From Escherichia coli (GTDB lineage: Bacteria; Pseudomonadota; Gammaproteobacteria; Enterobacterales; Enterobacteriaceae): a stretch of 64,000 nt of DNA. A program made the position numbers and the translations under genes. The notes beneath the pieces are model-generated. The model was not told the DNA's origin. It searched no databases and saw nothing but the letters and a program-made list of their open reading frames with translations. Every line of letters starts with the position of its first letter. The first letter of the stretch is position 1. The DNA lies in NCBI RefSeq assembly GCF_045037415.1, contig NZ_CP173438.1; one strand, 5' to 3'. Below, in pieces: positions 3,560 through 64,000 of this stretch.

Positions 3560-4462
3560 CTAACCACCCGTTTTCAGGCAATATTCTGTCGTAGCGTGGC
3601 GTTCGATCCAGCGGATCATTTTACCCGCGATGTCGATACCGGTGGTTTTTTCTATTCCTTCCAGCCCTGGCGACGCATTCACTTCCATCACCAACGGCCC
3701 GCGATTAGCACGCAGAATATCCACACCAGCAACGTCCAGCGCCATCGTTCGCGCGGCTTTTATCGCGATTTCACGCTCCTGTGGTGTGATACTGGCGACG
3801 CTTGCCGCGCCGCCACGATGCAAATTGGAACGAAAATCGCCCTCTTTCGCCCGCCGTTCAATCGCAGCGACTACTTCATCGCCAACAACCAGACAGCGGA
3901 TATCGCACCCTTGCGCCTCTTTGATATATTCCTGCACCAGAATATGCGCGTTCAGACCGCGGAAAGCGTCAATCACGCTTTCCGCCGCCTGACGCGTCTC
4001 CGCCAGCACGACGCCAATTCCCTGCGTGCCTTCAACCAGCTTGACCACCAGCGGCGCACCACCGACCATGTCGATTAAATCGCTGGTATCATCCGGCGAA
4101 TGCGCAATGCCCGTGACAGGCAGGTCGATGCCCTGACGCGCCAGCAGTTGCATGGAACGCAATTTGTCACGCGCCCGGGCAATGGCGACCGACTCATTGA
4201 GCGGATAGCTCCCCAGCATCTCGAACTGGCGCAGTGCCGCCGTCCCATAAAAGGTAATGGCGGTGCCAATACGCGGGATCACTGCGTCAAAATGGGGTAA
4301 CTTGCGGCCTTTGTAGTGAATAGAAGACGCCGCAGGATTTATGTTCATATAGCAAGAAAGCGGATCAAGAATTTCAACCAGGTGACCGCGCTGTATAGCG
4401 GCTTCACGCAGCCGCTTACACGAATAGAGCGTTCCATCCCGGGACAATATGGCAATTTTCAC
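3560..4462 (-). CDS. rimK: Ribosomal protein S6 L-glutamate ligase RimK (ATP-grasp)
   Basis: ORF track 300 aa [10 protein letters not shown]...; ATP-grasp family; first codon reads GTG in the sequence. Confidence 0.94.
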
Positions 4463-4522
4463 CCTGCACCTCTCTGTCAGACCTGGTCAAAAGCCCGCGT
4501 ATCATACATCGACGTGGCAGTT

Positions 4523-5976: not shown

Positions 5977-6340
5977 TGTGCTGTGGTTTAAACAAACTAC
6001 TGATAAATAAGAAACACAATGCCCCCAGCGCACACCAGAACACCGCACTTAATAACCATGCCAGCTCTTGCCAGAATGAGCGCGTCGGTGAAAAAAACAG
6101 CCGCATAATGAGCATCGAGCAGGGTGCCGCCAGCATTGCGCCAAACAGAGGTTTCAGGACTTCTCTACGATGTGAAAAGAAGCTGGCAACTGCACCAGGA
6201 AGAATGAAAAATAGCAAACCGATTTCAGGATGCCCGGCAGCCCGAAAAGCGCCTTTCATGTGCGTCGCCAGAAAAAGACACACCACAATGAAGAGGACAA
6301 AACAGCAGATTGCCCCCGCCCAACGTTGTTTATGTTTCAC
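5963..6340 (-). CDS. ybjM: Inner membrane protein YbjM
   Basis: ORF track 125 aa MKHKQRWAGAICCFVLFIVV..., four hydrophobic segments; first codon reads GTG. Confidence 0.9.
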   Translation of the reverse strand: MKHKQRWAGAICCFVLFIVVCLFLATHMKGAFRAAGHPEIGLLFFILPGAVASFFSHRREVLKPLFGAMLAAPCSMLIMRLFFSPTRSFWQELAWLLSAVFWCALGALCFLFISSLFKPQHRKNQ

Positions 6341-45768: not shown

Positions 45769-45803
45769 TCTGCATGGTTATGCATAACCATGCAGATTTT
45801 CTC
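45769..45803 (+). terminator. rhtA rho-independent terminator
   Basis: Perfect palindrome TCTGCATGGTTATGCATAACCATGCAGA followed by TTTTCT. Confidence 0.6.
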
Positions 45804-45884: not shown

Positions 45885-46562
<678 letters not shown>

Positions 46563-61770: not shown

Positions 61771-61968
61771 ATGATGCGTAAAGCGCTTCGCGCTAAATTC
61801 GAACAACATGCAGAACTGCGTACACTCTTGCTGGCAACCGCGTCCGCAAAACTGGTTGAGCATACGCAAAATGATGCTTACTGGGGAGATGGCGGTAATG
61901 GTCAGGGCAAGAATCGCCTGGGGTACCTTTTAATGGCGTTGCGCGGACAATTGGCTGCGGAGAAGTAA
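61771..61968 (+). pseudogene. ybiA: ybiA (NADAR/DUF1768 N-glycosidase) C-terminal remnant; N-terminal ~95 codons absent
   Basis: Frame encodes MMRKALRAKFEQHAELRTLLLATASAKLVEHTQNDAYWGDGGNGQGKNRLGYLLMALRGQLAAEK, which looks like the C-terminal third of a NADAR domain; no N-terminal NADAR sequence in any frame between dinG and this point; the 101-aa ORF from 61663 would span the dinG start and LexA box; could alternatively be annotated as a short CDS. Confidence 0.6.
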
Positions 61969-62200: not shown

Positions 62201-63562
62201 TTACTGCGCAGCGGCAGGTTTACGCGGACGGCGGCGACGTTGTTGTTCGCCTGCCGGTTTGGCATCGCCGAGACGACGAGACGGTTTTTCTGCGGGCTTC
62301 GCGTTACCAGACTTCGCACCACTTTCCGCACGGCGTGGTTGCTGTTGACCGCGACCACCGCCCTGTCCACGACCGCCGCCACGTTGCTGGCGACCGTTTT
62401 GGATCGGTTCGGCTTTGATTGACGGGTCCGGCTCATAGCCCAGAATCGCAATGCGCGGGATCTCTTTTTTCAGCAGTTTTTCGATATCACGCAGCAGTTT
62501 GTGTTCATCAACACACACCAGCGACAATGCTTCGCCAGTTGCCGCCGCACGGCCAGTACGCCCGATACGGTGAACATAATCTTCCGGTACGTTTGGTAAC
62601 TCATAGTTGACGACGTGCGGCAACTCTTCGATATCCAGACCACGCGCAGCGATGTCAGTTGCCACCAGTACACGAATATCGCCCGATTTAAAATCGGCCA
62701 GCGCACGAGTACGCGCACCTTGCGATTTATTACCGTGGATCGCCGCACTACGGATGCCATCTTTATTAAGCTGTTCAGCCAGATGGTTAGCGCCATGTTT
62801 GGTACGGGTAAACACCAGCACCTGCTGCCAGTTCCCTTTCCCAATCATATGCGACAGCAATTCGCGTTTGCGTTTCTTATCGACAAAGTGAACGTGCTGG
62901 GTCACCTGATCAGACGCAGTATTGCGGCGTGCCACTTCGATTTCCAGCGGGTTGTGCAACAGTTTTTCCGCCAGGGCTTTAATATCGTCAGAGAAGGTCG
63001 CGGAGAACAACAGGTTCTGGCGCTTCGCTGGCAGTTTTGTTAACACGCGACGGATATCGTGGATAAAGCCCATGTCGAGCATGCGGTCAGCTTCATCAAG
63101 GACGAGGATTTCAACCTGATCCAGCTTCACTGCATTTTGATGTTCCAGGTCCAGCAGACGTCCCGGCGTTGCCACCAGCACATCAACGCCGCCGCGCAGC
63201 TTCATCATCTGCGGGTTAATGCTGACACCGCCAAACACCACCAGCGAACGAATGTTCAGGTATTTGCTGTAATCACGGACGTTTTCGCCAATCTGCGCCG
63301 CCAGTTCACGGGTCGGGGTAAGAATGAGCGCACGCACCGGACGACGCCCTTTGGCGTGCGGCTGGCGAGTGATCAGGTGTTGCAACAGCGGCAGCGTAAA
63401 GCCCGCTGTTTTACCTGTACCGGTCTGGGCGCTGGCCATCAGGTCGCGGCCTTCCAGCACCGCAGGGATCGCCTGCTGCTGAATAGGGGTGGGTTCACGG
63501 TAACCCTGCTCGGCAACGGCGCGCAGGATATCAGGGCTTAAACCCAAAGAATCGAAAGACAT
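62201..63562 (-). CDS. rhlE: ATP-dependent RNA helicase RhlE (DEAD-box)
   Basis: ORF track 453 aa; Q-motif PTPIQ, Walker [24 protein letters not shown]; Arg/Gly-rich basic C-terminal tail. Confidence 0.96.
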
Positions 63563-63754
63563 AACTACTCCGAACCGCCCCGACCGTTACCGGTGTAGTT
63601 TTCAGGGAGATACTGAAAAGGAAAATGACAAAAACCACAATGTCATGAGGGAGCGGAGTGTAGCAGTTTTTGTGACGCAGCGCATAAATTATCCCTGTGA
63701 CTGGCGTAGCTAAAATTCTTAGCCATACTGGACAACTCCCCTATGGAGTCATAA

Positions 63755-63778
63755 TCTTAATCAATCATTTGATTAAGA
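63755..63778. promoter_or_regulatory. Candidate TetR-type operator (perfect 10 bp inverted repeat) in the rhlE-cecR divergent region
   Basis: TCTTAATCAA-TCAT-TTGATTAAGA, 13 bp upstream of the cecR ATG. Confidence 0.45.
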
Positions 63779-63790
63779 ATGGACTGTGCG

Positions 63791-64000
63791 ATGAATAATC
63801 CTGCCATGACAATCAAGGGTGAACAGGCGAAAAAACAGCTGATTGCTGCGGCACTGGCACAGTTTGGTGAATATGGAATGAACGCCACCACCCGCGAGAT
63901 AGCCGCCCAGGCCGGGCAGAATATCGCTGCCATCACCTACTACTTCGGTTCGAAAGAAGATTTGTACCTCGCCTGCGCCCAGTGGATTGCTGATTTTATT
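63791..64000 (+). CDS. cecR: TetR-family regulator CecR (YbiH), N-terminal part (continues beyond window end)
   Basis: ATG at 63791; [61 protein letters not shown]... is a TetR HTH domain; divergent from rhlE. Confidence 0.85.

Follow-up and report, generated by a model that had tools for sequence, protein, structure and literature searches.

The closest described system is that of the CecR (YbiH) regulator of Escherichia coli itself, for which Yamanaka et al. (2016), as recounted in the 2025 CecR structure paper (PMC12998191), located the DNA recognised by the protein within the spacer separating cecR-ybhGFSR from rhlE, and for which the same account states that a reporter assay showed CecR to control cecR-ybhGFSR negatively and rhlE positively. 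Shimada et al. list it as a single-target regulator with one genomic SELEX peak, in this spacer (PMC5934670; PMC8249747), as does EcoCyc (PMC5210515). Direct binding is cited in PMC12998191, PMC5934670, and PMC8249747 on the strength of SELEX, gel shift, and footprinting. The ChIP-exo study of YbiH by Gao et al. describes a palindromic AT-rich motif, consistent with SELEX, along with some extra targets, and gives the motif repeats as “separated by 7-nt” (PMC6237786). In vitro, CecR has been reported to bind cephalosporins and chloramphenicol, and the YbhG/YbhFSR efflux system under its control affects the sensitivity to cephalosporins, chloramphenicol, tetracycline, and CCCP. The abstract of the 2016 Yamanaka study reportedly names a footprinted palindrome, AATTAGTT-AACTAATT, which is the complementary strand of TTAATCAA...TTGATTAA, i.e., the very site considered here. 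A full-text literature search for the half-site strings and the consensus palindrome returned unrelated papers only, searches on the regulator by name gave no paper quoting the site sequence, and neither a PDB sequence search nor the 2025 CecR structure paper yielded a CecR-DNA structure.

The stretch of E. coli DNA analysed (64,000 nt, hereafter “the window”) ends shortly after the start of cecR, and a first-pass annotation of it had singled out a perfect 10-bp inverted repeat in the rhlE-cecR divergent spacer, 13 bp before the cecR start, as a candidate autoregulatory operator of CecR. The features on which this proposal turns are the following:

63755-63778, no strand: perfect 10+4+10 inverted repeat TCTTAATCAA-TCAT-TTGATTAAGA, very probably the CecR operator in its Escherichia form
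63791-64000, plus strand: 5' part of cecR (ybiH), identified by RefSeq, translation, Pfam, and PDB 9i1x; the window stops inside the gene
62201-63562, minus strand: rhlE, the divergent neighbour, coding for a DEAD-box RNA helicase and reportedly under positive CecR control

Both the window sequence and a repeat finder bear the repeat out: its arms (63755-63764 and 63769-63778) are 10 nt long, 100% complementary, and 4 nt apart, it is the sole perfect repeat within 63500-63900, and it cannot be extended outward, A63754 and A63779 being unpaired, with the four central nucleotides (TCAT, 63765-63768) asymmetric in E. coli. It lies in the 228-bp divergent rhlE/cecR spacer, and the distance of 13 bp is correct when counted inclusively, 12 nt intervening between the end of the palindrome and the cecR ATG at 63791 (the RefSeq start). 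An in-frame ATG at 63779 was rejected as the cecR start, being absent outside Escherichia. The downstream product carries the Pfam domains TetR_N (E = 2.4e-14) and CecR_C (E = 3.9e-35), and it matches PDB 9i1x, E. coli CecR (E = 1.7e-147), and 1t33, described only as a putative TetR/AcrR repressor (E = 7.5e-126), with RutR being, by its N-terminal domain, the nearest other solved relative in a PDB sequence search. The palindrome thus has for a neighbour what a TetR-family operator is expected to have, a regulator with an N-terminal helix-turn-helix (HTH), and is itself an inverted repeat within the ~15-30 bp range placed upstream of its own regulator gene. In RefSeq, cecR is the first gene of cecR-ybhG-ybhF-ybhS-ybhR, with hlyD/ybhG, ybhF, ybhS, and ybhR downstream. 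In 5,423 of 5,426 complete E. coli genomes, the 501 bases around the site find a match of at least 95% identity, and the annotation under the match names cecR and rhlE. RefSeq also places a truncated NADAR-family pseudogene fragment at ~61771-61968 (4272-4469 in locus L001), between dinG and rhlE.

A functionless palindrome thrown up by chance in AT-rich DNA has to be weighed first, and the spacer is indeed relatively A+T-rich (G+C 0.44); perfect 10/10 repeats with a 0-12 nt spacer, however, turned up in only 58 of 20,000 mononucleotide shuffles of the 228-nt spacer (p ~0.003). Over the whole window there are 25 overlapping hits, equal to ~14 distinct repeats of this kind (dinucleotide shuffles give ~1), and these are mostly G+C-rich and terminator-like.

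As the E. coli spacer is nearly invariant (5,408 complete genomes share, at 100% identity, the 36 nt surrounding the site, which occur just once per genome in 5,423 of 5,426), comparison within the species is uninformative, and a genome scan for CecR was used to assemble 80 Enterobacteriaceae loci, one per species, with protein identities of 73-100% and with Escherichia, Citrobacter, Salmonella, Kluyvera, Enterobacter, Klebsiella, Raoultella, Kosakonia, Leclercia, and other genera represented. The unit that emerges from them is slightly shorter than the E. coli repeat:

63757-63776, no strand: operator core TTAATCAA-NNNN-TTGATTAA, with invariant arms and the family consensus TTAATCAATCGATTGATTAA

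One of the two outcomes that the first-pass annotation named as refuting its proposal is a lack of conservation in other Escherichia genomes; the palindrome is kept in all of Escherichia as well as in each of the 80 Enterobacteriaceae loci, 10-14 nt before the cecR start in 79 of them; the 35 nt separating it from the start in the remaining one (L078) are explained by a protein match starting only at residue 9. Of the 16 arm bases (TTAATCAA/TTGATTAA), all are the same in 78 loci and one differs in each of the other two, and, in an alignment of the 73 distinct spacers, mean conservation is 0.95 at 63753-63772 versus 0.48 at 63693-63722. The consensus TTAATCAATCGATTGATTAA is a perfect 20-bp palindrome of the form (AATC)2(GATT)2, whose dyad centre is TCGA in most genera and TCGT in some Kluyvera, so that Escherichia departs from it by a two-base change at the palindrome centre. 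Among loci L009-L083, the centre (63765-63768) reads TCAT in Escherichia and in one other Enterobacteriaceae genome (L044), which breaks a palindrome that is perfect in most of the other genera. As the outermost two pairs of the E. coli 24-mer vary, sometimes symmetrically (TC/GA, TA/TA, AG/CT) and most often as TC/TT (28 of the 80 loci), it is the 20 bp of 63757-63776, not the full 24 bp, that constitute the conserved unit. A dyad with a 4-nt centre allows even spacings only, and the conflict with the 7-nt spacing given by Gao et al., at least as worded in the relevant part of that study (PMC6237786), therefore remains.

Looking for the same palindrome upstream of other genes, which had been proposed as a check, gave an answer that depends on where one looks: the 64,000 nt of the window hold no other site with fewer than three mismatches, whereas distant TetR genes do have it upstream. 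Matches to TTAATCAANNNNTTGATTAA in the window number five in all versus 0.4 expected from shuffles, and the four other than the site itself, at 5988, 16453, 28262, and 51782, each have three mismatches, none is symmetric, and three lie inside stop-to-stop open reading frames (ORFs) longer than 200 codons, so that a locally A+T-rich sequence is probably all that they reflect. No second genomic copy was found in E. coli at the sensitivity of BLAST, which needs ~20 identical bases.

The distant CecR homologues, taken from a search of representative proteins, extend the pattern. At 59% identity (L084), the core is contained in a 30-bp perfect palindrome; at 49% (L086/87), the site reads TTAATCATATGATTGATTAA, and at 40-43%, TTAATCAATCGATTGA (L091) and AATCAAACGATTGATCAA (L090), with one locus of 46% identity and a G+C of 0.32 (L088/L089) showing no obvious copy of the palindrome. 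The HTH segment ATTRxIAxxxGQNIAAI is invariant in the distant homologues compared. Metagenome contigs were also scanned for TTAATCAANNNNTTGATTAA, which returned 120 contigs, and the centre of the match proved to be telling: 37 of the 47 sites with a [T/A]CG[A/T] or TCAT centre (two of them from a viral scan) adjoin an ORF matching the CecR-family profile, versus 5 of the 195 sites with other centres adjoining a CecR-like TetR ORF (Fisher p = 5e-29). The palindrome thus stands beside TetR genes in 42 metagenome contigs that differ widely in base composition, including six TetR-flanked ones with a G+C of 0.59-0.68, whose proteins are 28-33% identical to CecR, and operator and regulator can be said to co-occur across taxa, as is expected of a TetR-family pair. 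The 16-base pattern is, admittedly, frequent by chance in A+T-rich viral and metagenome DNA, the viral-contig scan having yielded A+T-rich matches only, none with a TetR neighbour and 119 of 121 with unrelated centres. With a core that stays invariant over ~80 species though the adjacent bases diverge, and with the statistical tie to CecR-like genes given above, the conservation and co-occurrence data effectively refute a chance origin, to which virtually no credence can still be attached.

In contigs with a G+C of 0.36-0.44, the neighbouring proteins combine TetR_N with TetR_C_4/TetR_C_24, not with CecR_C, and have a similar HTH, STRQIAKESGANMAMINYYFGSKE. Low-G+C loci (L322, L253, L265, L313, L272, L284, L300, L331, and others) carry CAAAATTAATCAA[A/T]CG[A/T]TTGATTAAT upstream of TetR genes, the palindrome being 2-21 nt upstream of genes for proteins of ~210 aa, with several of the loci having a divergent ORF of ~820-840 aa ~150 nt off. 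Three CG-centre palindromes (L236, L214, L230) have no TetR neighbour and lie 2-10 nt upstream of other ORFs, which, judging by eye from the N-terminal sequence, include a LacI-type regulator and a Sua5/YrdC-like protein; whether by chance or not, such sites could mark additional members of the regulon. Taken together, and held as a tentative idea to which we give somewhat less than even credence as a whole, the E. coli site might be a slightly degenerate copy of a widespread operator, TTAATCAA-[T/A]CG[A/T]-TTGATTAA, read by one HTH signature (…G-x-N-[I/M]-A-[A/M]-I-x-Y-Y-F-G-S-K-E…) across unrelated ligand domains, spanning CecR_C proteins in proteobacteria and TetR_C_4/TetR_C_24 proteins in low-G+C bacteria. 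Were this true, operator and HTH would together form a portable module for reading DNA, and for thousands of uncharacterised TetR regulators the operator could be predicted from the HTH alone.

The same adjacency to TetR genes bears on another protein that might be thought to own the site, the integration host factor (IHF), whose core consensus is matched within the palindrome on both strands:

63759-63771, plus strand, and 63762-63774, minus strand: two overlapping matches to the IHF core consensus WATCAANNNNTTR, by consensus match only

IHF, alone or in competition with CecR, would on this account bend the DNA between the divergent promoters, with the dyad being incidental. Besides the perfect match on both strands, it has in its favour that the WATCAANNNNTTR scan also matches 45911-45923, presumably the IHF site of the dps promoter, and that 11 matches are found in the window versus 2.8 expected. 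The consensus, however, carries only ~16 bits and leaves unexplained the invariant outer TT/AA (63757-58 and 63775-76), the conserved central CG of other genera, and the strict dyad symmetry, nor does it give any reason for the TetR-gene adjacency in the 42 metagenome contigs. IHF sites are asymmetric, and what would be expected of one is conservation that is asymmetric, limited to the consensus, and independent of the neighbouring gene; that of the palindrome is symmetric, exceeds the consensus, and follows the TetR gene. A literature search found no paper linking IHF to the rhlE/cecR locus. An IHF site as the explanation of the palindrome is, hence, rather improbable, although, going by the sequence match, IHF may co-occupy or compete at the site in enterobacteria. 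A Fur box (~12 of 19 bases by eye, 63750-63768) was also considered and rejected, as its symmetry centre is off the conserved dyad.

What makes a CecR operator of the palindrome plausible as a repressor site is its position with respect to a promoter that can be predicted for cecR-ybhGFSR:

63729-63734, plus strand: predicted -35 element, TGGACA, of the cecR-ybhGFSR promoter, from its conservation and fixed distance to the palindrome
63752-63757, plus strand: predicted -10 element, TAATCT, 17 nt after the -35
63763-63765, plus strand: predicted transcription start (about A63764), placed by the usual sigma-70 -10-to-start spacing (~7 nt) only

The -35 block has near-100% column conservation, reading TGGACA in 71 of the 80 loci and TCGACG, TAGACA, or TGGACG in eight more, and the -10 block fits TAnnnT in every one of the 80, always at the same spacing. 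Its final T (63757) doubles as the first base of the operator core. In a relaxed weight-matrix scan, TGGACA-17-TAATCT is, with a score of 8.52, the joint-best plus-strand promoter of the spacer, and the candidate that scores equally (63689-63716, plus strand) is unconserved. A stricter generic promoter/terminator scan called no promoter, as the -10 matches the consensus at only three of six bases in E. coli, and one weak, irrelevant terminator inside cecR. An alternative -10, CATAAT (15-nt spacer), no longer ends in T in the species with an AG outer pair, which is why TAATCT is preferred. The predicted start would then sit at the inner end of the left arm, with the palindrome spanning ~-9 to +15, and a dimer sitting there would mask the edge of the -10, the predicted start, and the first part of the leader. 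Given this predicted promoter/operator overlap, the repression known from the literature would be explained by simple occlusion.

The mechanism that can be proposed is, accordingly worded as a model, the following: a CecR homodimer, or possibly two, would bind both TTAATCAA half-sites via the N-terminal HTH and, sitting on the site from the last -10 base to ~+15, would block RNA polymerase at the cecR-ybhGFSR promoter, which would result in negative autoregulation and in repression of the ABC efflux genes. Binding of a cephalosporin or chloramphenicol to the C-terminal domain would be expected to release CecR and de-repress the operon, and in Escherichia the same bound CecR reportedly raises the transcription of the divergent rhlE. 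The notion in the first-pass annotation of a TetR-family repressor acting at its own promoter holds in that the site abuts a conserved predicted promoter, and needs refining in that CecR is described as a dual regulator by which rhlE is activated.

The predicted start is also what speaks to a rather different explanation, namely that the conserved element acts not as DNA but as a hairpin in the 5' leader of the cecR mRNA, with an effect on the stability or translation of that mRNA. If the whole palindrome were transcribed, a 10-bp stem of -9.2 kcal/mol (z = -5.9) would form; the conserved promoter, however, predicts a start inside the left arm, and the leader from that start folds no better than shuffles do (z = +0.43). 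The stem bases are, moreover, invariant without covariation, only the outer two pairs varying, often asymmetrically, and Rfam has no family that fits the palindrome, which leaves a hairpin very unlikely. Neither a stable stem with a T-run nor covariation, by which a terminator or regulatory hairpin is recognised, is seen here; an intrinsic terminator was rejected for want of a G+C-rich stem (three of ten pairs are G-C) and of a T-run, and none was called here by the terminator scan. Elsewhere in the window, a 28-bp perfect palindrome at 45769-45796, TCTGCATGGTTATGCATAACCATGCAGA, followed by TTTTCT just past an ORF end, does look like an intrinsic terminator, and the sequence downstream of it resembles what we take to be the dps promoter region.

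Which of the two divergent genes the site chiefly serves is a separate matter, and one could argue that its main role is the activation of rhlE, with the autoregulation of cecR being secondary, a reading that is compatible with the palindrome being a CecR operator. That CecR controls rhlE positively, acting from its one site here, is reported (PMC12998191), and the divergent rhlE/cecR order, found in most of the 80 loci, persists down to homologues of 46-49% identity. Yet three Klebsiella species (L047, L064, L079) and a Pluralibacter (L075) have no rhlE within 2.5 kb, the gene is 1.1 kb from cecR in Superficieibacter, and L068 is likewise among the loci where it is absent or distant, and in L047, L064, L075, L079, and L068 the palindrome stays 10-14 nt before cecR. 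As the promoter blocks and the palindrome are kept in all the loci without an adjacent rhlE, the conserved function belongs to cecR. The palindrome also occurs in distant contigs with different neighbours, its centre is ~204 bp from the rhlE ATG, and the site-proximal part of the DNA in between is the least conserved part of the spacer. As rhlE is not the upstream neighbour of cecR in Klebsiella and Pluralibacter, the effect of CecR on it is not general, and wherever the two genes do adjoin, activating rhlE can be no more than an additional role; that this should be the main one seems improbable. In K. pneumoniae (L047 1507-2430), a same-strand gene for a LysR-type regulator ends ~70 nt before cecR.

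The rhlE-proximal half of the spacer (63563-63695, minus strand) is itself ~90% conserved across the Enterobacteriaceae, equal to coding DNA, and a piece of it, CCGGTGTAGTTTTCAG, recurs in a locus with a 49%-identical CecR homologue. RNAalifold pairs CUACACUCCG, or alternatively AACUACACCGG, with CCGGAGUAGUU, which comprises the Shine-Dalgarno sequence just before the rhlE AUG, and this predicted folding suggests that rhlE has a long, structured leader upstream by which the ribosome site could be sequestered; covariation is scant in it, the sequences being almost alike. A candidate -10 for this leader is GATAAT at 63693-63688 (minus strand).

All in all, the palindrome is, with a high degree of confidence, the operator of CecR, the TetR-family regulator encoded directly downstream, and the autoregulatory role first proposed for it is supported by the published binding in the spacer, the negative control of the operon, the ChIP-exo motif, the conservation, and the co-occurrence with CecR-like genes. 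It is also the CecR operator known from the literature, the site having been mapped experimentally in 2016, which makes the proposal correct but ordinary: as the binding, the target, and the direction of regulation are all in print, confirming the palindrome adds little for E. coli. The site matters as the switch for a core enterobacterial resistance determinant, and the gains made here are modest, consisting of a comparative consensus in the form of a perfect 20-bp palindrome, which may be bound more tightly than the Escherichia version, of a promoter model that would account for the repression, and of an operator/HTH pair that is reused well beyond Enterobacterales and could help to annotate TetR regulons.

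Set against the classical TetR-family operators, i.e., the 15-bp tetO of TetR, the 28-bp IR1 of QacR, and the RutR box, the CecR site shares the placement of a palindrome in the promoter region of the regulator’s own gene and, by analogy with the general description of the family (PMC12998191), would share an HTH protein that acts as a homodimer and whose repression a ligand relieves. It differs from them in the half-site sequence, in a dyad of 20-24 bp (30 bp in L084) with nested AATC repeats, and in that CecR has also been reported to activate the divergent gene. The stoichiometry may be modelled either on TetR, where one dimer binds, or on QacR, where two do, and, by analogy, the dyad length of 20-30 bp together with the nested AATC repeats may mean that two CecR dimers bind in a QacR-like manner. 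With the K-12 CecR site (Yamanaka, Shimada, Yamamoto & Ishihama 2016, Microbiology 162:1253), the gene pair, the spacer, and the regulator are all the same, the spacer in the window differing from that of K-12 by a single base outside the palindrome; there is no substantive difference from the published site, to which the consensus with a TCGA centre and the predicted overlap with the promoter are the additions made here.
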